NCBI GenBank assembly: GCA_965248925.1
Contig: CBDFLE010000005.1
Coordinates: 607,135-671,134 of the forward strand
DNA from: Candidatus Multivoradales bacterium
Lineage (GTDB): Bacteria; Acidobacteriota; Thermoanaerobaculia; Multivoradales; J023
Direction: 5' to 3'
DNA length: 64,000 nt
Shown here: positions 23,742 to 32,804 of the stretch, piece by piece
Layout of the letters: every line of letters begins with the position of its first letter
How positions within the stretch are numbered: position 1 is the first letter of the stretch
Program-made: the position numbers and the translations under genes
Notes under the pieces: generated by a model
What the model was told of the DNA's origin: nothing
Seen by the model: the letters and a program-made list of their open reading frames with translations, nothing else
The model's database searches: none

Positions 23742-23986
23742 CTCATTTCACTCTGCGGACATGGAGAAGCGAAGGCAAGTTAGCTATAGTGCTACTCGGC
23801 GGTTGGCGAGGTGCAAGACCTCTGCGAGCCGCCGCATTATTCATCAATTTCAACCGCTTGGCCGAAGGCCCGGGCAGTGCGCCTGGAGCTTGCAACGTGA
23901 TGGCGTTGGCCGGGCGGGCGAGGGCCTGCCGCATGGTCGCGGACGACAAGGAAATAGGGGCATCGGGGGGGACGGGCGAATTCTCC

Positions 23987-25981
23987 ATGCCTGGGCAGAT
24001 CGATGCCCAGTTCAAGAAATTTGCCGACTTTGTGGACCAGTATTCCGGTCTGATCTCGCTCAAGGGCATTTTCTTCGCCAGCAACGAGCCTGAACCGGTG
24101 GGCTCTCAGTTGGTGCTGGACTTTCGCTTGGTAGATGACTTCAGGCTGTTCAACGCGCTCGGCGAAGTGGCCTGGATCGGCACCGATGACGAGCCAGTGA
24201 GGCTCAACGGTCAAGCGGTTAGCGGTATGGGAATCCGCTTTCAAGCGCTGGATGCCAAAGGCCGTAACCTGATCGTGAGAGTGCTGGAAGAGCACGTCAA
24301 CATGGGCGGCGCGCCCTTCGAAGTTGAGAGAGTTCCCCCGGTCGCCCTGCTGGATATTCCTGGTGTGGCGGCGAGGCCTGAACCTGACCTTGATCCCGGT
24401 GTTGCCGAGCAGCTCCAGGCCGAGCCCGAACTAGAGTTCGAGGAAGAAGATGAAGTGCAGCTGGAGGACGAACTCGAGTTGCTCGACGACGACGAGGTAG
24501 AATTGGCGATGGAGGAGCCAGACACAGCGACGCCCGAGGTGACGCCCGAGGCTCCTTCGTTGCCCGAGCAACCGAGTCTCGAAGCCGCGGATGGTTCGCA
24601 GGACGGCCCTGAGGCCGTCGAGGTCATCGCTGGAGCTGAGCTGGCCGACCGTCTGGGCTCTTTGCCCGGGGAACCGAGTACCGCACTTCCCGGTTTTGAG
24701 TTCGGGGAAGACTTCGATGCCCTATTCGAGACCGATTCGGATGCTGATCAACCGCCGCCGGAAAACAGCGAGGAAGACACGGTTAGCGATGTGACTCCGC
24801 CGCAAGCGTCGGTTGCAGCGGCCGCCGACGGGGATGAAGAGAAGCCTCATATCCACCGCTTGAGCAATCCCAGCGACCCCAACGATCGCAGTGGACCGAT
24901 GCCAGACTTGCAGTGGGGAGAAGAGATCCCCGGCTTGGAAAGCGAACTCGCCAACTCCCTGCCACCGGCCAGCGCGCAGCTGGACGATAGCGCCTTGGAC
25001 TCGCAACCAACGAAGCTGTCCAGCAGTGACCTATCGCCTGCCGCTGACGCCGCGGTTGAGGAGAGTGGCGATGTTCTTGGCGATCTCGGGTCGCCAGTGA
25101 CTACGACTGGGGATTTCTTGGTTCCGGCACGCGAGGAGGCCGAGTCGCCATTGGAGGAAACTCAGGACTCCTATGTCGCCTGGCGCCCGGAAGGGCTTGG
25201 CAAGAGGGGGATAGGGAGCGGGATAGCTCAGCGAGCGCGGTCTGCCCGTCCACAACTCCTCGCCCTGACTCTGATCCTTGTCTTGGCCGCTTTGGGCTGG
25301 CTCTATCGCGATACTCTCGTGGGTTGGGTCGGTGTTGGCTCACGGCCAGTTGCCACCGCCGAAGGGCCTGCTGTAGCCGCAGTCGCTCGGCCAGCGATGA
25401 CCGCAGATGAGGATACCGAGCAGCCGGCGCCAGAACCCGTGCAGGAGAGTTCTGTGACGACCGAGCCCTCAGCGGTTGTGGGCACCACGGACCCTTCCTC
25501 GCCGCCCGCCGCAGCAGCGCCCGACGGCTCCGGTGGCGAAGAGACTCCACGCGCCCGAGTTGACGATTCTTTGGCGTCCCCCGGTGGCAGGGTCGCGGTG
25601 GCAGAGCCGTTGATTTCGCGGCAGGGCAGGGCGCAGTCGGCAAGTTTGATTCGGTCCATCACCTGGAGTCAAGAAGGCGACGCTACCGTGGTCACCTTGG
25701 TCGCCGATGGCGAGCTACGATCGTCGCAGCTCAAGGTCAGCCGCTTTCGCAGCCAAGTCCGGCCGCGCGATCTGCTGGTGCTCCGAGGCATAGAGCAACC
25801 TTTCACCGGTGGCACGATGCGCATCGGCAATGATCAGTTGGAACGGATCCGCATCGGTTTCCATCCGGATCACCAACCCAGCCAGCTGCATGTGGTCTTC
25901 GACCTGGCATCGTCGGCGATTGAAACCAGCGCGCCGAGAGTCGAGGGCGATCGACTGGAGATCACTTTCCGCCGTCTTTGA
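23987..25981 (+). CDS. Multidomain protein: N-terminal non-canonical PilZ-like domain - acidic/proline-rich disordered linker - single TM - low-complexity region - C-terminal AMIN-like domain
   Basis: N-terminus (about 120 aa) resembles the Myxococcus-type PilZ family (beta-rich, 'VSGMGIRFQALD' matching the D/NxSxxG-like 'PGMGVRF' block; no RxxxR). Residues about 130-400 are strongly acidic and Pro/Ser-rich. TM 'LLALTLILVLAALGWLY'. C-terminal about 100 aa ('ATVVTLVADGEL...LHVVFDLAS...LEITFRRL') fits an AMIN-type beta-sandwich. The start is uncertain (ATG 23987 or 23933; the ORF-track 23789 extension is unlikely). Confidence 0.5.
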   Translation: MPGQIDAQFKKFADFVDQYSGLISLKGIFFASNEPEPVGSQLVLDFRLVDDFRLFNALGEVAWIGTDDEPVRLNGQAVSGMGIRFQALDAKGRNLIVRVLEEHVNMGGAPFEVERVPPVALLDIPGVAARPEPDLDPGVAEQLQAEPELEFEEEDEVQLEDELELLDDDEVELAMEEPDTATPEVTPEAPSLPEQPSLEAADGSQDGPEAVEVIAGAELADRLGSLPGEPSTALPGFEFGEDFDALFETDSDADQPPPENSEEDTVSDVTPPQASVAAAADGDEEKPHIHRLSNPSDPNDRSGPMPDLQWGEEIPGLESELANSLPPASAQLDDSALDSQPTKLSSSDLSPAADAAVEESGDVLGDLGSPVTTTGDFLVPAREEAESPLEETQDSYVAWRPEGLGKRGIGSGIAQRARSARPQLLALTLILVLAALGWLYRDTLVGWVGVGSRPVATAEGPAVAAVARPAMTADEDTEQPAPEPVQESSVTTEPSAVVGTTDPSSPPAAAAPDGSGGEETPRARVDDSLASPGGRVAVAEPLISRQGRAQSASLIRSITWSQEGDATVVTLVADGELRSSQLKVSRFRSQVRPRDLLVLRGIEQPFTGGTMRIGNDQLERIRIGFHPDHQPSQLHVVFDLASSAIETSAPRVEGDRLEITFRRL

Positions 25982-26010
25982 GGTCAGGAGTTCTACCAAG
26001 CTGGCAACGA

Positions 26011-27585
26011 TCACTGTTCTGGGAAGCTGCCTGGCCCTGGCTTGAGACCGGCCAGCCGCTCGGGGTTGATCTTTGCCTTCACCGTCCGCCGATCAATTCC
26101 CAGTCGCCTGGCGGTCTCGGAATAGCTGCCGTTCTTGGCATAGATCAAGGTGCAGTAGCGGCCCACCAGCTCTTCGGCGCTCAACTCGGCGCCCACTAAT
26201 GCGGCATCGAGGCCATCGTCGGCCAGCTGAGAAGTGTTTGGCGGCAGGTAGCGCCGGCGGATCAGTACATTGCGAACACATTGCTCGAGTTCGCGTACAT
26301 TGCCAGGCCAACGGTAGTCCGGTCCGATGGCCAACCGCCCATTGTCGTCGCGACCGTGAAAAATCCATTCCACAGTCTCCTCGGCCAGACCTTCCGCCTC
26401 CTGCTCATCAACCAGCCGCTTGGCCAACAAAGTGATCAGTTGCTGCAGGTCGTCGTCCGACTCCGCCAGTTGTGCCGCCAGGGAGGGAGTTTCGATGACA
26501 TCGGCGCACAGCCGGTAGTAGAGATCAGCGCGAAAGCTGCCACGCTGGATCAGCTCTTCCATATCGCGGTTGGTGGCGGCGATGATCTTGCCGGCGAAAG
26601 GGCGCGAACGGGTCTCGCCGAGGCGTTCGAAGCTACGGCTCTGCAAAACTCGCAAGAGTTTTACCTGGATTGCCGGATCGACCTCGCCGATTTCGTCGAG
26701 AAAGACAGTGCCGAGTGCGCCGCAGGCTTCCAGCCACCCGGTGCGGTCCTGTTCGGCGCCGGTAAATGCGCCGCGGCGGTGGCCAAAAAGTTCAGACTCG
26801 ATCACTGCCGGCGCCAATGCAGAGAGATTCAGGGGGAAGAAAGAGTCCTCGGGGTCGGCTGGAAAACAGCCTGTGTTGGCGTTAAACGGCAAGTAGCGTG
26901 CTAGTCCGATAGCCCTGGCTACCAGCTCCTTGCCGGTGCCGGAAGGGCCGGTGATTAGGGTTGAGATCTCCCCCATGCGGGGGAAGAGCGAACGCCGGTA
27001 ACGGTGCAAGTCGTGGGTGAAGATGGACTGCCAGACCGTGGCACGCAAGCGCGCGGCCGGCATCGATCCGCCGAGGATGTAGTGAAAGCAGTAGTGAAAG
27101 GCTCGGCGCACTTGGAAGAAGCAGGCGAATAGGTGGTCTGTTTCCAACCTGCCGGGCAGTTCGAGCGGAAGTTCGTTGAACAGACGCGCGACCTCGTCGC
27201 GGAATTTAGGCCAGAACGAGACCGGTCGCGACAGGCCGCTAGCCGTGCTGAGAAAGTGAAAGAAATCCAGCTGGTACTTGTCGTAGAGGAAGTAAGTTGC
27301 GACCTCGTAATAGAGCTGTCGCTCGTGCAGGGTGCCTTGTCGCCCCTGACGCAGGCGATCTCCTACCCGCTGGGTGATCCGAGCTGCCCGGCGCCCCAAT
27401 TCTTGCACATTAGGGTTGGGCAGACGGAAGGACTCGGTGCGATGCCAAACCGTGCCTAAATCGACAAAGTCTTCTCCCAGCGCTAGCTGCTCACAGCGAA
27501 TCCTCTCTGGCAGGAAAGGGTTGCACTGGGTGAGACCGGCGATCGCCTCGGCAAAGTTGTGTTCCTTGGAATCGAAGAGGGGCAT
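26011..27585 (-). CDS. Sigma-54 enhancer-binding protein with a non-receiver N-terminal sensory domain (unknown fold) + AAA+ activator + Fis-type HTH
   Basis: '[16 protein letters not shown]', 'ESELFGHRRGAFTGA' (the GAFTGA sigma-54 contact loop), 'DEIGEV', 'RLLRVLQ', 'IIAATNRD', 'YRWPGNVREL'. C-terminal 'YSETARRLGIDRRTV' HTH. The first about 200 aa have no REC/GAF/PAS signature I can recognise. Confidence 0.85.
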   Translation of the reverse strand: MPLFDSKEHNFAEAIAGLTQCNPFLPERIRCEQLALGEDFVDLGTVWHRTESFRLPNPNVQELGRRAARITQRVGDRLRQGRQGTLHERQLYYEVATYFLYDKYQLDFFHFLSTASGLSRPVSFWPKFRDEVARLFNELPLELPGRLETDHLFACFFQVRRAFHYCFHYILGGSMPAARLRATVWQSIFTHDLHRYRRSLFPRMGEISTLITGPSGTGKELVARAIGLARYLPFNANTGCFPADPEDSFFPLNLSALAPAVIESELFGHRRGAFTGAEQDRTGWLEACGALGTVFLDEIGEVDPAIQVKLLRVLQSRSFERLGETRSRPFAGKIIAATNRDMEELIQRGSFRADLYYRLCADVIETPSLAAQLAESDDDLQQLITLLAKRLVDEQEAEGLAEETVEWIFHGRDDNGRLAIGPDYRWPGNVRELEQCVRNVLIRRRYLPPNTSQLADDGLDAALVGAELSAEELVGRYCTLIYAKNGSYSETARRLGIDRRTVKAKINPERLAGLKPGPGSFPEQ

Positions 27586-27820
27586 ATTGATCAGCTCGTT
27601 GAAAGTGTCAGTCTAGCAGGCCCGTCCGGGGATGAAGGCTGGGTCTTAGGCGCAGCTTGACCCCAGCAATAGGGGAGAGTAGACTGGCGTAAGTAAGGCG
27701 GATAAACCGCTGTGCAAGCCGCCGGTTGAGAAAAGCAATCAGGTGGCACTGAAGCATCCGGGCAGGTAGGTGCGAGGAGACGCGGCTTCTGGGCGGGCAG
27801 TTTTAGAGAGAGACTCCAAG

Positions 27821-27855
27821 GAGTGAATATCTCTTCAATTGAGAGATATTCACTC
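27821..27855. promoter_or_regulatory. 35-bp near-perfect palindrome (14-bp arms GAGTGAATATCTCT / AGAGATATTCACTC around t-CAATTG) in an AT-rich island, with a second 8-bp-arm inverted repeat (GTGATTTT-cttgcc-AAAATCAC) 40 bp downstream
   Basis: Read directly. Local GC is about 40-45% against about 67% for the window. Lies in the divergent intergenic region between the sigma-54 EBP gene and the XRE-family HTH gene. An AGTGA motif recurs four times within 90 bp. Confidence 0.55.
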
Positions 27856-27990
27856 TGCCTTCTCTGGAGTGATCATTAAAAGGCACTAAAAACAGTGATT
27901 TTCTTGCCAAAATCACACTTCTACTGTTCCAAGTCACGTTTGATATAAACTCTTGGAAATCAACGAATTGCCTTCAGGACAGCAAAAGTC

Positions 27991-28482
27991 ATGGTAGTTG
28001 AAAAAGAACTTACTCGCATTCTGACGTTGCTCCGCAACAAGATCCGAGAACGCGGTTTCACCCAGCTCGAGGTCCAGGACGCGCTCGGCTGGGGTCGCAG
28101 CTACATCAGTCAGCTGCTGACTAAGCAGAAGTCTCTTCGGGTTGAGCAGGTGCTGCTCATTCTCAAGGTCATCGGCGTTGAGCCAGTGGAGTTTTACAGT
28201 GAACTCTACCATTTCATGCCGGTAGAGCCTGGCATCCGCAATATCGATGAGTTCGCAGAGGACGGCCCACAGCCTCGCCAGCTGCCGGCGGCCAGTCTCA
28301 CTAGCGACGGCAGTGAACCGGATGCCGATGCTCTTCTGCGCAGCCTCAACGAAGTCAAGCACATGGTTCATGGCGTGCTGCAGGTGATGATGGACAAGAA
28401 CATCATGACCATGGAGGAAATCAGCGACGCGGTGAAGGAGAGCGAACTCAGCAGCCGCGCTGCCGTGAAGAAGCCCAACTAG
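27991..28482 (+). CDS. XRE/Cro-C1-type helix-turn-helix transcriptional regulator
   Basis: 'GFTQLEVQDALGWGRSYISQLLTKQKSLRVEQVLLILKVIG' is a canonical HTH_XRE. Acidic C-terminal tail. The gene and its upstream region have lower GC than their surroundings. Confidence 0.65.
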   Translation: MVVEKELTRILTLLRNKIRERGFTQLEVQDALGWGRSYISQLLTKQKSLRVEQVLLILKVIGVEPVEFYSELYHFMPVEPGIRNIDEFAEDGPQPRQLPAASLTSDGSEPDADALLRSLNEVKHMVHGVLQVMMDKNIMTMEEISDAVKESELSSRAAVKKPN

Positions 28483-28487
28483 GTCTG

Positions 28488-29246
28488 CTAGTCGGAGGGC
28501 TCAAAGCTCTGACTCATCGCCAGCCTGAGCTGGTCGGCGAGTTCCTTGCGTTGGTCTGCAAGGATAGGTGTGCTGCCAAAACGCACCTGGATGTCGATCT
28601 GGGGCAGCTGCAAGAGGCGCAGGAAGTGCGGTGCGAAGTCGCTATCGCCCCACCAAGAGACCCACTCTTGGGCTGAGCGTTGCGGATCCCGCGTGGCGTA
28701 GCTCAAAGTCACATAATGCACCGGCACTGCCCGCTTGGCCGGGTAGTCGAGCAATGAGGGCTTGAAAGGCAAGAGAACATCGCCTCTGCCGGTCGTGCCT
28801 TCGGGAAAGAGCAGCACCCCCAGTCCGCGAGCGCGGCTGTGATCGATCAGCCGCAGCACTCGCAATAGGTCTCGCTTGCGGCTGCGGTCGACAAAGATCG
28901 AATCGGCGGCCCGTAGGATCCCCCCAACTAGCGGCCAGCCCCGCAAGTCTAGCTTGGCGATATAGGCTACATCGACCAAGCTGCCGAGGACGATGATGTC
29001 GAGATAGGTTTGGTGGTTAGAGACCAGGAAGAAGTCTCCCCTCGGCGGCTCTCCCTGACAGTCGACCCGCAGGCCGATCACCCGTCGCAGGGATCTTGAC
29101 CAAGTTCTAAAGATCCAATTTCGCCACCGCAACTGAGCTTTGGGAAACCAGCCGCGGGTAGGCCAGCTGATCAGTAAACCGGCGTAGCTGAGCAGGGTTA
29201 GCAAGGCAATCACCTTGATTCGCCAGATGCGTCGCAGAGTGGACAT
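28488..29246 (-). CDS. Lysophospholipid (1-acyl-glycerol-3-phosphate-type) acyltransferase, PlsC family
   Basis: N-terminal TM. 'FLVSNHQTYLDIIVL' (HX4D catalytic motif), 'FPEGTTGRG' (acyl-acceptor pocket motif). Confidence 0.8.
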   Translation of the reverse strand: MSTLRRIWRIKVIALLTLLSYAGLLISWPTRGWFPKAQLRWRNWIFRTWSRSLRRVIGLRVDCQGEPPRGDFFLVSNHQTYLDIIVLGSLVDVAYIAKLDLRGWPLVGGILRAADSIFVDRSRKRDLLRVLRLIDHSRARGLGVLLFPEGTTGRGDVLLPFKPSLLDYPAKRAVPVHYVTLSYATRDPQRSAQEWVSWWGDSDFAPHFLRLLQLPQIDIQVRFGSTPILADQRKELADQLRLAMSQSFEPSD

Positions 29247-29266: not shown

Positions 29267-31996
29267 CTAGCCTGTGTTCTTGAGGCCTTGCGCGATGCCA
29301 TGCACCGTCGCCAGCAGGGCGGCCTGAAGTTCCGAGTCTTGACGGTTGCCAGCGCGCCACCGACGTAGTAGATCCACCTGCAAGAGGCTCATCGGATCAA
29401 CGTAGGGATTGCGCAGCCGGATTGAGCGTTGCAGGGTCGGATCACGGTCGAGTAGCTGCTCTTGGCCGCGCAGCCGCAGCACCCATTCGACCGTCCGCTG
29501 GTACTCCCTTTCAATCCGCGGGAAGAACTCTCGACCGCGGTCGCCGGCAAGAGAGGCATAGCGGGCGGCGATCGCCAGATCCGCTTTTGCTAGCACCATC
29601 TCCAGATCTTCGAACAATGTACCCAGGAAGGGCCAGCCAGCGACCATTTCCGCCAGCGGTTCCTCGCCGTGTTGCTCGACTGCTCGCTCAAGAGCACTGC
29701 CGAGGCCATACCATCCGGGCAGCAAGTGGCGACTCTGAGTCCAGGAGAAGACCCAGGGAATAGCCCGCAAGCTGCCGATTCCCCCTCCCTTGCGGCGCGA
29801 GGATGGGCGTGAGCCGATGGTCATCTTTTCGATCACGTCGATCGGTGTCGCTCGGCGAAAATAGTCGACGAAGCCGTCTGCGTGGTAGACCAGCTGACGG
29901 TAATTGCGCCGGTTATCGCGGGCGATCTGATCGACTATCTGGCGCCAGGCAGCCGGTTGCTGCGGCTCCCGCTCTGCTGCCGGAGCAGGGCTTACAGAGA
30001 CCTTGGCAATTGCTCCCAGAGCCTGCTCCAGGCTGCGCAGAGCGATCCCCCGAAGGCCGTATTTGGCATCGATAACCTCTCCCTGCTCGGTCAGTCGCAA
30101 ATGGCCGGCGACCGCTCCCGGAGGCTCCGCCAACACCGCCCGGTGGGTTTTCGAGCCACCGCGGCTGATGGTGCCGCCACGGCCGTGGAAGACGGTCAGC
30201 TTGACCTGCGCCGCGGCGAGGGTTTCGACCAGGGCGGATTGGGCTTGTTGGAGCGCCCAGCGAGAGGCCGCGATGCCTCCCTCCTTGCTGCTGTCGGAGT
30301 AGCCGATCATCACCATCTGGCGGCGATCACGGCGATCGAGGTGGCTGCCGTAGGTCTCATCCGACGCCATCTTTCCCATCACCTGAGGTGCGGCCTGTAG
30401 ATCCGGCACAGTCTCGAATAAGGGCGCCACGTCGAGGGGGACTTCACCAGCAGCATTGGCCAAGCCGCCCCAGCGGGCTAGCAAAAGGACACTCAACAGA
30501 TCGTCTGCCCCTTGGGTCATGCTGGTGACAAATGGTCCCACGGCACGCTCGCCATAGCGTTGGCGGGCGGTGGCGATGGCAGCGAAGACCGCTAGGGTGG
30601 GCTGGTCAAGATCGCCGGGTGGGCAGGGAGGTGGGGCCGGCGGTGCAGTCAGCAGGCCGCTCAAGAGCTGCGTTCGTTCGGCGGCAGTCTGCTGCGGCCA
30701 GTTTTCTTCACCCAGCAGTCTGCCCACCACCGCCCGGTGCAGCAAAGCGTCTTGGCGCACATCGAGGGTCGCCAGGTGGAAGCCGAAGGTCTCGACCCGC
30801 CGCAGCAGGCGCAGGACGGCGAAGCGCCCCGCATTGTGCCCGCGGTGATGAGCCAAGCTGGCAGCGATCAGCCGCAGGTCGTCGGCCAGCTCTTCCGGGG
30901 TCGCATAAGCGTTTTCTTGGTCTTGGTCGGTAGCCTGCAAGCGGGCGGCGATCAAGCGCAAGAGGATGCGGTAAGGCATTGTTTGATGGCGTGGTTTGAT
31001 CACTTCTGCGGGAAACAGCCGGCGATAGGTCTCGAGCTGAGCGCTGAGGGCATCATCGACGGCGATTTCGCTGCTCGACTGACTGAGTTCGCCGGCCAAG
31101 GTGCGAATTTCACGGCGGTAGAGGGCCAGCACCAATTGCCGATGCCGGGCCAGGGTGGCGCCGATCGAAGCGGCGGTGACATTGGGATTGCCGTCCATGT
31201 CGCCACCCACCCAGGAGGCAAAGCGCAAAATGCCGTTGGGTACCTGCAAGCGCTGCCCCCAGACTCTCTCGATGGCGTTCTCGATCGCTTCGTAGAACGG
31301 TGGCACGGTGAGATAGAGAATGTCGGTCACATAAAACAGCACATGTTCCATTTCGTCGCCGACGGTGGGTCGCTGCGAGGGATTCTGGTCGGTCTGCCAT
31401 GCGGCGGTGATGGCGGAGCGAATCCTTGCCATCGAGGCCTCAAGCTCGGGTGGGGTGAGGGTGCGGTCCAGTTGCTCGACCAAGCGGCGGGCGATCTGCT
31501 GATCTTTCTCCAACAAGCTGCGCCGAGTAGCCTGGGTGGGATGGGCGGTGAATACAGGCTCGAAACTCAGCCGCTCGAGCAAGTGACCAACTTGCTCGAC
31601 GGTGACACCGCTGGCGGCGAGTTCGGCGAAGGTGTGTTCGAGGCTGCCGGGCTGCGCTGTGGTGCCGCGCAAATACTCCCGTCGGCGGCGGATGCGGTGT
31701 ACTTTCTCGGCCAGGTTGACGAGCCGAAAGTAGGCCGAGAAGCCGCGCACCAGACGCTCGGCCGCGGCCGGCGTCAATCCCTGCAGCAGCTCCCGCAGCT
31801 CGCTTTCGGCGTCTTTCTCTCCATCACGCCGCCTGATGGCGCATTGGCGAGCAGTCTCGACCCGATTGAACAGCTCCTCACCGCCCTGTTCGAGCAGCAT
31901 CTCACCGACCAGACTTCCAAGTCTGCGGACATCATCGCGTAGCGGTTGGTCTTTAGCGGCAAACTTTACGACTCGGCGACTCACTACATCTCCCAT
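29267..31996 (-). CDS. ppc: Phosphoenolpyruvate carboxylase
   Basis: 'VFTAHPTQATRR' catalytic loop, 'GYSDSSKEGGIAAS', 'FHGRGGTISRGG', and the universally conserved C-terminus '...NTG'. 910 aa from the ATG at 31996. The ORF-track 32083 start would add 29 aa. Confidence 0.9.
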   Translation of the reverse strand: MGDVVSRRVVKFAAKDQPLRDDVRRLGSLVGEMLLEQGGEELFNRVETARQCAIRRRDGEKDAESELRELLQGLTPAAAERLVRGFSAYFRLVNLAEKVHRIRRRREYLRGTTAQPGSLEHTFAELAASGVTVEQVGHLLERLSFEPVFTAHPTQATRRSLLEKDQQIARRLVEQLDRTLTPPELEASMARIRSAITAAWQTDQNPSQRPTVGDEMEHVLFYVTDILYLTVPPFYEAIENAIERVWGQRLQVPNGILRFASWVGGDMDGNPNVTAASIGATLARHRQLVLALYRREIRTLAGELSQSSSEIAVDDALSAQLETYRRLFPAEVIKPRHQTMPYRILLRLIAARLQATDQDQENAYATPEELADDLRLIAASLAHHRGHNAGRFAVLRLLRRVETFGFHLATLDVRQDALLHRAVVGRLLGEENWPQQTAAERTQLLSGLLTAPPAPPPCPPGDLDQPTLAVFAAIATARQRYGERAVGPFVTSMTQGADDLLSVLLLARWGGLANAAGEVPLDVAPLFETVPDLQAAPQVMGKMASDETYGSHLDRRDRRQMVMIGYSDSSKEGGIAASRWALQQAQSALVETLAAAQVKLTVFHGRGGTISRGGSKTHRAVLAEPPGAVAGHLRLTEQGEVIDAKYGLRGIALRSLEQALGAIAKVSVSPAPAAEREPQQPAAWRQIVDQIARDNRRNYRQLVYHADGFVDYFRRATPIDVIEKMTIGSRPSSRRKGGGIGSLRAIPWVFSWTQSRHLLPGWYGLGSALERAVEQHGEEPLAEMVAGWPFLGTLFEDLEMVLAKADLAIAARYASLAGDRGREFFPRIEREYQRTVEWVLRLRGQEQLLDRDPTLQRSIRLRNPYVDPMSLLQVDLLRRWRAGNRQDSELQAALLATVHGIAQGLKNTG

Positions 31997-32033
31997 CCAG
32001 GGTCTCGGTCCGACGGCGTCTTGGTTGGGCTCA

Positions 32034-32804
32034 TTATGGGCCAGCCGTGGTCGCAGGCGCCAGCACCAGGTAGTCGTTGCCATCGCCTCCAGTGGCGTCG
32101 GCGCCGGCCAAGTGGGCGACCTCTCGCATACCTGAGGCGGCCATCAGTCTGGCGGCTTCTGGCGGCTCGGTGAGATGGCAGTAGCGGGGACGACCTTGCT
32201 CGCCGCCCCAGCTCAGTAGATGGTCGCCAGGCTCGAGTTGGCTGCGGTCCAGCGGCTGACCCGCGAGGTGTCGCGGCCACGGCAAGATCTTGCGCCCCTG
32301 GCGTGGGTCAAGGTCAAAGCGCCACAGCGACGCGGTCAATCGCCCGCCGGGCTGGAGATACCGGCCCAGGCGCCGCAAGAGACGCGAGCGCTGCTCGAAG
32401 CCGGCAATGTGGTGGACCACGCCGAAGAGAGCGATCCAATCGAATTGGCGGCCGCTGAGCCGCTCATCAAGGTGGTTGTCCAACAAATCGAGCTGTAGCA
32501 GGTGGCAACTAGCGAAGCGCTCGGCGAGCTTGTTGCGGGCGGCGGAGAGCAGCTGCTCTGAACTGTCGCAGGCGGTGTAGTCGATCACCTGGCCGCCGAG
32601 CCGATCGGCAAGGAATGCGCCAAAGCGGCCATTGCCGCAGCCGGCATCGAACACCCGCAGCGGACGGCCGAGATCGCCGCAAAGTCGCAGCAGCTCATGC
32701 CACCCCGGCCAGGGACTCTGCCGGGTGCGGTCGAAAGCGGCGGCGTGGTGGTGGTAGAAACCGCGGTTGAGGGCTTGCAGCTGAGCGGAAGTGCGATGGT
32801 CCAT
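32034..32804 (-). CDS. Class I SAM-dependent methyltransferase
   Basis: Motif I 'VFDAGCGNGRFGAFL', motif post-I 'ACDSS', motif II/III region 'FDWIALFGVVHHI', 'LQPGGRL'. Transcribed divergently from the Elp3-like gene. The start is uncertain (32804 ATG preferred over 32882, which would overlap the Elp3 start). Confidence 0.65.
   Translation of the reverse strand: MDHRTSAQLQALNRGFYHHHAAAFDRTRQSPWPGWHELLRLCGDLGRPLRVFDAGCGNGRFGAFLADRLGGQVIDYTACDSSEQLLSAARNKLAERFASCHLLQLDLLDNHLDERLSGRQFDWIALFGVVHHIAGFEQRSRLLRRLGRYLQPGGRLTASLWRFDLDPRQGRKILPWPRHLAGQPLDRSQLEPGDHLLSWGGEQGRPRYCHLTEPPEAARLMAASGMREVAHLAGADATGGDGNDYLVLAPATTAGP

Follow-up and report, generated by a model that had tools for sequence, protein, structure and literature searches.

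A 64,000-nucleotide stretch of a Candidatus Multivoradales bacterium (Acidobacteriota), hereafter the window, carries a 35-bp palindrome, GAGTGAATATCTCT-TCAATTG-AGAGATATTCACTC (27821–27855, strandless), in the 405 bp between two divergent regulatory genes, and this raises the question of which regulator the palindrome serves and whether it works as DNA or as RNA. On one side lies the gene of a 524-aa sigma-54 enhancer-binding protein (EBP; open reading frame 26011–27585, minus strand), and on the other the gene of a 163-aa XRE-family regulator (27991–28482, plus strand). A first-pass annotation of this DNA had presented the palindrome together with the EBP and suggested either a tight repressor/operator pair with the XRE protein or a horizontally acquired switch. 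Our comparative analysis points to the XRE protein. With a probability that we put at about one half, the palindrome is the window version of a conserved operator, whose central dyad would be bound by an XRE dimer feeding back on its own transcription.

The evidence comes mainly from the DNA upstream of XRE orthologues, which are common across Acidobacteriota. In 12.9 kb of such DNA the motif TCTC-N9-GAGA was found 7 times vs. about 0.1 per shuffle, i.e., an approximately 70-fold enrichment, while other DNA of these loci (151 kb) gave 3 occurrences; the corresponding numbers for the nested TCTC-N7-GAGA are 9 vs. about 0.1 per shuffle, and 6 in the 151 kb. The spacing is fixed, and TCTC/GAGA at spacings 6 and 8 gave zero matches in the XRE-upstream regions. 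The aligned sites follow the consensus TTTCTCT-N7-AGAGAAA with an invariant core; the dyad symmetry runs two positions beyond the core on each side (in 5–6 of 8 loci), the central 7–9 nt are without consistent complementarity, and no symmetry is seen further out except in the window. There the conserved dyad forms the centre of the palindrome, ATCTC-N9-GAGAT (27829–27847), flanked by lineage-specific outer segments of 8 bp each. Counted from the XRE ATG, the dyad is located at −161 or −162 in the window and in the loci L081, L084 and L090, and at −87 to −136 in L142, L086, L083 and L087. Furthermore, AGAGA/TCTCT-rich motifs are enriched upstream of XRE, TTCTCT, AGAGAT and GAGAAA each being present in 12–15 of 43 upstream regions vs. 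3–4 expected. The search for the best perfect inverted repeat in each locus against shuffles gave heterogeneous results, significant in only some loci, and the fixed-spacing test was more informative. A comparison of the intergenic region across relatives, which the first-pass annotation had recommended, thus showed a conserved TCTC-N9-GAGA core within lineage-specific outer arms. Its repressor/operator proposal gains from the fixed-spacing dyad conserved upstream of XRE orthologues.

The gene order tells to which gene this DNA belongs. The order conserved in Acidobacteriota is PilZ(+), XRE(+), OlsA-like acyltransferase(−), methyltransferase(−), ELP3-like(+), and PilZ-XRE-OlsA is found without the EBP gene in L083, L084, L085/86, L088 and L090, and partly in L110. 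An EBP gene separating PilZ from XRE is confined to the window and its close relatives L081 and L142, and to L006, which has an extra PQQ-propeller gene there; the EBP gene is therefore an inserted element of the window's clade and a later arrival at the locus. By the same comparison, PilZ, XRE, OlsA is the ancestral gene order in Acidobacteriota, and the region upstream of XRE is ancestral, vertically inherited and belongs to the XRE gene. The idea of a horizontally acquired switch is not borne out for the XRE region, given a synteny conserved across Acidobacteriota; it is the EBP gene that was inserted. The base composition reported for the region, about 40–45% GC over 27600–27990, holds only for 27800–27990 (38% GC), whereas 27600–27799 has 60% GC and is close to the window mean of 62%.

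The palindrome proper was described correctly as a long dyad around tCAATTG: its 14-nt arms are 100% complementary, and it can also be written as ATATCTCT-TCAATTG-AGAGATAT, with a GAGTGA/TCACTC extension. Such a dyad is indeed rare, being the sole perfect inverted repeat with arms of at least 12 nt and a loop of at most 15 nt in 64 kb, while block-shuffling the window 60 times gave longest perfect arms of 8–13 nt and never 14. Its perfection, however, is not shared by L081, the nearest relative, whose XRE protein is 83% identical to that of the window. L081 retains the left arm (12/14) and GAGAGA but loses the right outer arm, so that the outer arms of the palindrome are not kept. In the window vs. 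L081, the right outer arm has been swapped as a block for the exact complement of the left arm. The correction of quasi-palindromes by template switching is an established mutational mechanism, and since the left arm is conserved and the right outer arm is replaced blockwise by its exact complement, the perfect 14-nt arms would be a recent lineage-specific extension, probably produced by template-switch correction of a quasi-palindrome during replication. If the arms arose in this way, their unusual length and perfection need not mean an unusually tight operator, and perfect arms do not appear to be a conserved requirement.

Could the whole palindrome then be a replication accident without function, or a REP-like or mobile-element repeat? 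Chance alone comes close to giving one inverted repeat with perfect 14-nt arms every few Mb (by our own estimate, about 0.005 per 64 kb), and the lack of conservation in the outer arms fits an accident. Against this, the centre of the palindrome is a positionally conserved dyad. As for repeats, the palindrome is present in a single copy in the 64-kb window, even allowing 2 mismatches, and no copies were found in the viral contigs scanned; the REP-like spread that the first-pass annotation named as fatal to its proposal is thus not seen in the window or in these contigs. We consider both variants of this explanation very improbable.

Other repeats noticed earlier around the palindrome are real but not shared with L081. 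The second inverted repeat, GTGATTTT-N6-AAAATCAC (27895–27916, strandless), forms a predicted hairpin of −6.7 kcal/mol (z −3.2); at the aligned position L081 has a different inverted repeat, ACAGA-N6-TCTGT. The four AGTGA motifs are likewise present in 27800–27990 (27822+, 27850−, 27868+ and 27894+) vs. 0.29 expected, and neither they nor the second inverted repeat have a counterpart in L081. One of them, the lone AGTGA in GGAGTGATCA (27866–27875, plus strand), overlaps a TGATCA palindrome and is not conserved in L081.

The XRE protein is the most economical candidate for binding the dyad because the regulator encoded downstream has an invariant helix-turn-helix (HTH). Its HTH (28033–28194) gave an HTH_3 match of 36.8 bits vs. 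a cut-off of 23, and is followed by a disordered linker and two C-terminal helices. The DNA-binding domain contains 44 invariant columns across 30 orthologues, and in L081 the HTH is 100% identical over the first 80 aa; with an HTH so nearly invariant, the target should be conserved too. In the AlphaFold2 model, residues 1–72 form a five-helix DNA-binding domain (pLDDT >90), residues 78–110 the disordered linker, and two helices close the chain. The nearest solved folds to the DNA-binding domain are restriction-modification (R-M) controller proteins, e.g., C.Esp1396I (TM 0.8, root-mean-square deviation of about 1.5 Å, 25% identity). Proteins of this fold occupy dyad operators in dimeric form or, on 35-bp operators, as two paired dimers (tetramers) (PMC2504287).

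Several known systems offer points of comparison. The window protein shares the HTH_3 domain with the autoregulated XRE/Cro-cI repressors lambda cI and 434 Cro, and, as with these, its own upstream region carries a dyad of about 17–21 bp and several sites between two promoters. Unlike them, it is 163 aa long, including a disordered linker and a C-terminal module of two helices, it is encoded on the chromosome in phylum-wide synteny and is not phage-borne, and its operator is putative. The operator of C.Esp1396I and C.AhdI (GACTnnnAGTC-nnnn-GACTnnnAGTC) is also 35 bp long, and the palindrome can be written, like a two-dimer operator, as box-ATA-box-N7-box-TAT-box with A/T-rich 3-bp spacers (PMC2504287). 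In contrast to these systems, the XRE protein has double the length, its sub-sites would be spaced 20 bp from centre to centre rather than about 15 bp, and the outer boxes are not conserved in L081. Nor do the neighbours fit an R-M C protein: they encode the EBP, the OlsA-like acyltransferase and a phosphoenolpyruvate (PEP) carboxylase, no R-M genes are nearby, and no C-box GACTnnnAGTC was found in 27586–27990. The possibility that each 13-bp arm is a dyad of its own (AGTGA-ATA-TCTCT), like a C-box pair, was dropped, being unsupported by L081. An assignment to HipB/antitoxin-type proteins failed as well (TIGR03070, 18.5 bits vs. a cut-off of 71.65), and there is no toxin-like neighbour. The XRE-family protein SinR acts through several half-sites of varied number and orientation with the consensus GTTCTYT (PMC3163267). 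Bacillus subtilis SinR, too, joins an XRE-type HTH to a C-terminal helical oligomerisation module, and the window-family half-site TTTCTCT resembles GTTCTYT, with copies in varied arrangements upstream of the target (PMC3163267); this resemblance may be a coincidence. The two proteins show no sequence relationship beyond a generic HTH, and no SinI-like partner was seen. The likenesses to SinR and to the R-M controllers are best taken as analogies, not memberships.

The dyad is embedded between two predicted promoters reading toward XRE. The distal one, sigma-70-like TTGACC-17-TAGACT (27657–27685, plus strand), was found by a consensus scan and has a counterpart upstream of XRE in at least 15 loci, e.g., TTGACC-18-TATAAT in L081, TTGACC-17-TAGAAT in L083 and TTGACA-17-TAAAAT in L102. 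Immediately 3′ of its −10 hexamer lies a tandem GGCG(G)TAA repeat, GGCGTAAGTAAGGCGGATAA (27686–27705, plus strand). As GGCGGTAA-N3-GGCGGTAA, this element stands right after the distal promoter in at least 15 non-redundant loci (the window, L081, L083, L084, L086, L088, L090, L094, L098, L100, L102, L110, L142, L143 and L006), 147–452 nt ahead of the ATG. GGCGGTAA is found in 11 of 43 upstream regions vs. 0.7 expected, always on the XRE strand, and the tandem is restricted to XRE-bearing loci among the 140 loci compared. It matched no known element and no Rfam family. The leader body downstream of the distal promoter is not conserved between the window and L081. The putative proximal promoter region (27941–27980, plus strand) comprises an extended −10-like TGATATAAA (27941–27949), TTGGAA (27953–27958) and a degenerate CAGGAC (27975–27980), and is nearly identical in L081. 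TTGGAA and CAGGAC are homologous to a proximal promoter CTTGAAA-N17-TAGAAT that many relatives have about 10 nt before the ATG, its −10 hexamer being degenerate (CAGGAC) in the window and L081; CAGTAGAAT is present in 9 of 43 relatives vs. 0 expected.

Conserved phylum-wide at the predicted XRE transcription start, the tandem may represent an operator of a new type, a discriminator or a signal in the 5′ part of the RNA. It also gives rise to an alternative that we regard as unlikely, yet of some weight: the dyad would be bound by another factor, and the XRE protein would bind the tandem at 27686–27705, or neither element. The tandem is known from more XRE loci than the dyad and always lies on the XRE strand, its place directly after the −10 hexamer is a classic repressor position, and the window-specific AGTGA motifs suggest further factors acting at the region. 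However, HTH dimers of the XRE fold normally read inverted, not direct, repeats (PMC2504287), and the enrichment of the dyad is strong and specific to the XRE-upstream regions.

The location of the palindrome inside the predicted leader suggests a different role, that of an RNA hairpin in a long transcript from the distal promoter, controlling the stability, processing or read-through of the XRE mRNA. Folding both strands, another check proposed earlier, clearly showed a stable structure in the window: the palindrome hairpin reached −22.3 kcal/mol (z −5.8) on the plus strand and −20.1 kcal/mol (z −4.0) on the minus strand, and the predicted leader as a whole also folded better than shuffles (z −3.4). 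The variation of the arm sequences between loci, with near-core complementarity kept, would fit such a hairpin. Yet the palindrome folds equally well on both strands, and the aligned region of L081, despite the identical HTH, folds no better than shuffles (z +0.75). As L081 keeps the core and loses the hairpin, what is conserved is the DNA core and not the hairpin. TCTC and GAGA keep a fixed linear spacing, with unpaired bases between them; together with the invariant core and the hairpin loss in L081, this favours the recognition of duplex DNA by a dimer. Searches for RNA elements did not help the hairpin either: Rfam gave no match at E ≤ 1 in 27000–28600 and nothing relevant in ten related loci, and 27400–28200 contains 0 terminator-like sites, the stem being A+T-rich and followed by UGCCUUCU instead of a U-run. 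We regard an RNA role as improbable. We also considered, and dropped, a distinct small RNA that would stop at the palindrome, as the window has no terminator there and a canonical one was found in only 1 of 13 related leaders. A canonical intrinsic terminator is seen in L086, about 105–125 nt upstream of the XRE ATG and just before the dyad (ACCGAG-AATGGCAC-CTCGGT, then TTTTT), and the distal transcript of L086 may end before the XRE gene.

Returning to the operator, its probable arrangement can be outlined as follows. The control unit would open with the distal promoter (27657–27685) and the GGCGGTAA tandem at the transcription start; a leader of about 130 nt then separates these from the dyad, which is followed by the AGAGA/TCTCT sites, the proximal promoter and the XRE gene. 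Transcription is predicted to start at about 27692 and about 27953 on the plus strand, and at about 27600 on the minus strand. Most likely, an XRE dimer binds (A/T)TCTC-N9-GAGA(A/T) at 27829–27847, possibly also the neighbouring AGAGA/TCTCT-like sites, and binding at the dyad would feed back on XRE transcription (we infer both the binder and the sign of regulation). At the dyad, some 140 nt past the presumed distal start, the bound XRE protein could block elongation and would so limit transcription of its gene from the distal promoter; about 100 bp upstream of the proximal promoter, it could modulate that promoter. The EBP gene, equipped with a short promoter of its own, would have entered between PilZ and the XRE control region and would make no use of the palindrome.

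Several observations weigh against this arrangement. Both XRE promoters are consensus predictions only. The exact fixed-spacing dyad is present in only about 8–9 of some 15 syntenic orthologues, the others having AGAGATCTC-type or other arrangements, and the more widespread GGCGGTAA tandem could be the true XRE operator. Moreover, the distance from the dyad to the proximal promoter varies, as the positions between −87 and −162 relative to the ATG indicate, and within the window alone WTCTC-N9-GAGAW is not significant (1 vs. 0.23 expected). As an autoregulatory operator, the palindrome would be one more example of an ordinary, well-understood kind of element; of more use is the context, which supplies a DNA motif open to testing for a regulator that hardly varies across Acidobacteriota, where experimental genetics is very scarce.

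There remains the EBP, next to which the palindrome was first noticed. The palindrome adjoins the EBP gene, and EBPs bind dyads about 100 bp from their promoters, so it might be the upstream activating sequence of this activator. A comparison of 80 related loci (L001–L080) revealed a different site for the EBP family: in 59 of the 80 loci the dyad TGTACAT-N3-ATGTACA (≤3 mismatches) stands ahead of the EBP gene, approximately 15–150 bp from its start, vs. 10 matches in 566 kb elsewhere in these loci. It often occurs in two or three phased copies, e.g., TGTACATTCTATGTACA in L036 and TGTACATTTTATGTACA in L002. The family members with this dyad share with the window EBP the C-terminal motif ..GSYxExARRLGxDRRTVKxKI.., and the window protein retains the family recognition helix (RRLGIDRRTVKAKI), yet no such site was found (≤3 mismatches) in the window, or in L081, L006 and L142, the best intergenic match having 6 mismatches. 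Neither is there a sigma-54 −24/−12 promoter in 27586–27990 (≤2 mismatches), and TGGCAC-N5-TTGC matches in the window are at chance level (90 vs. 76). As the conserved dyad is found in loci devoid of an EBP gene (L083, L084, L086 and L090) and the family site differs from it, the association of the palindrome with the EBP is not borne out, and a role as its activating sequence is scarcely credible. By eye, the window (27743–27765) and the L142 leader share TGGCACT-N7-TCCGG(G)CAG, which is −24-like but has TC for GC at −12. A candidate extended −10 of the EBP gene, TGCTAGACT (27610–27618, minus strand), also recognized by eye and of putative promoter role, is arranged back-to-back with the distal promoter of XRE; L081 has the same sequence and L142 the variant TGCTAATAT.

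The family loci also point to a probable target. A divergent gene for a VIT + vWA protein of about 700 aa, whose C-terminal tail is Gly-rich, transmembrane and basic, is present in 30 of the 80 loci (e.g., L002, L004, L012 and L047), in 27 of them followed by a gene for a rhomboid-family protein, of which the one scanned (L047) passes the rhombosortase model TIGR03902 (120 bits vs. 84). A −24/−12 match such as TGGCACGTCTCTTGCT is found on the VIT-gene strand in 18 of the 30 loci and in 0 on the other strand. In pairing a VIT-vWA tail protein with a rhombosortase-type protein, these 30 loci are reminiscent of the rhombosortase/GlyGly-CTERM sorting systems; they differ in that the literature searched holds no report linking rhombosortase with sigma-54 control. 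Neither the VIT-vWA nor the rhombosortase gene is in the 64-kb window. Lacking the family site and both of these genes, the window EBP is most probably an orphan copy whose target lies elsewhere, placed beside the control region of another regulator.

In its architecture, the EBP resembles NtrC, DctD, XylR, NorR and PspF: an AAA+ core with GAFTGA, a putative C-terminal Fis-type HTH, and a module of about 200 aa at the place of the regulatory domain. The AAA+ sigma-54 interaction module (aa 206–445; 26251–26970, minus strand) gave a Sigma54_activat (PF00158) match over residues 206–361 with E = 5e−46 (156.9 bits vs. a cut-off of 20.2), and contains Walker A GPSGTGKE (residues 213–220; 26926–26949), GAFTGA (272–277; 26755–26772) and Walker B VFLDEIGE (294–301; 26683–26706). 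The putative Fis-type HTH (aa 479–517; 26035–26151, minus strand) includes RRLGIDRRTV (26080–26109), its HTH_8/HTH_28 matches being weak and below the Pfam cut-offs. The N-terminal module (aa 1–205; 26971–27585, minus strand) differs from those of the known EBPs in being not REC, GAF, PAS, V4R or FHA but, according to the AlphaFold2 model (pLDDT 89, pTM 0.87), an all-alpha domain of 8 helices.

The absence of REC, GAF, PAS and V4R signatures from the first 200 or so residues, asserted earlier by inspection, was confirmed: no Pfam family matched residues 1–205 at E ≤ 10 (FHA included), no PDB sequence matched them, NCBIfam matches cover the AAA+ core only, and Foldseek gave no match in the PDB (best E = 1.1, TM <0.3). 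In this sense the sensory domain is novel, but it belongs to a large existing family. A search with residues 1–205 returned 101 relatives, and a profile search of 1.84 billion representatives returned 1291 clusters (50% identity) at E ≤ 1e−3, with the domain always N-terminal in proteins of about 500–560 aa and encoded in at least 590 species genomes. The full-length homologues (505–530 aa, 52–58% identity) come from many phyla, i.e., Acidobacteriota, Methylomirabilota, Binatia, Planctomycetota, Nitrospirota and others. The near-invariant positions include N22, P23, E32, G37, W47, H151, R181, W185, S187 and F189. The Cys/His/aromatic-rich character emphasized in the first-pass annotation is not a family trait: CEQ and HYCFHY fall on variable columns, C21 and C155 are in the majority only, and of the Cys and His residues H151 alone is nearly invariant, so that a metal or redox centre is not indicated.

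This EBP family has been defined by comparison alone, with an unannotated sensor domain, a clear DNA motif and a probable target operon whose regulation is undescribed in the literature searched. We find it possible, at rather less than even odds, that two things at this locus are new, namely that the EBP represents an undescribed sigma-54 activator family (approximately 1300 clusters in many phyla, with its own site and the VIT-vWA/rhombosortase operon as the apparent target), and that the GGCGGTAA-N3-GGCGGTAA tandem of the XRE control region is new.

A few observations concern the neighbourhood. Compared with L083, L084 and L086, the EBP insertion (25982–27656) looks like a clean, single-gene one between PilZ and the XRE control region, with margins of about 30 and about 70 bp at its two ends and no flanking repeats visible by eye. 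In L006, a gene for a membrane-anchored PQQ-like beta-propeller (PF13360; 2177–3907 of that locus) lies directly upstream of the EBP gene and is co-directional with it; its product could be a partner or a sensor for this EBP copy. The possibility that 27600–27800 of the window is a remnant of this propeller gene, which separates XRE and EBP in L006, was dropped, as no similarity was found; aligned directly as DNA, the window and L006 proved too distant to show any. The PEP carboxylase gene (29267–32083) lies between the OlsA-like and methyltransferase genes; it also follows OlsA in L081 and XRE in L082, and is not at that place in L084, L085/86 and L088, where the methyltransferase gene directly follows OlsA. 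From this distribution, it is most probably a second lineage-specific insertion in the same neighbourhood. Finally, the gene on the far side of the EBP (23789–25981) encodes a 730-aa protein that starts with a PilZ/TIGR02266-type domain, has a very long middle part of acidic, low-complexity sequence and contains a probable transmembrane segment, and proteins of this type are syntenic with XRE in many Acidobacteriota.

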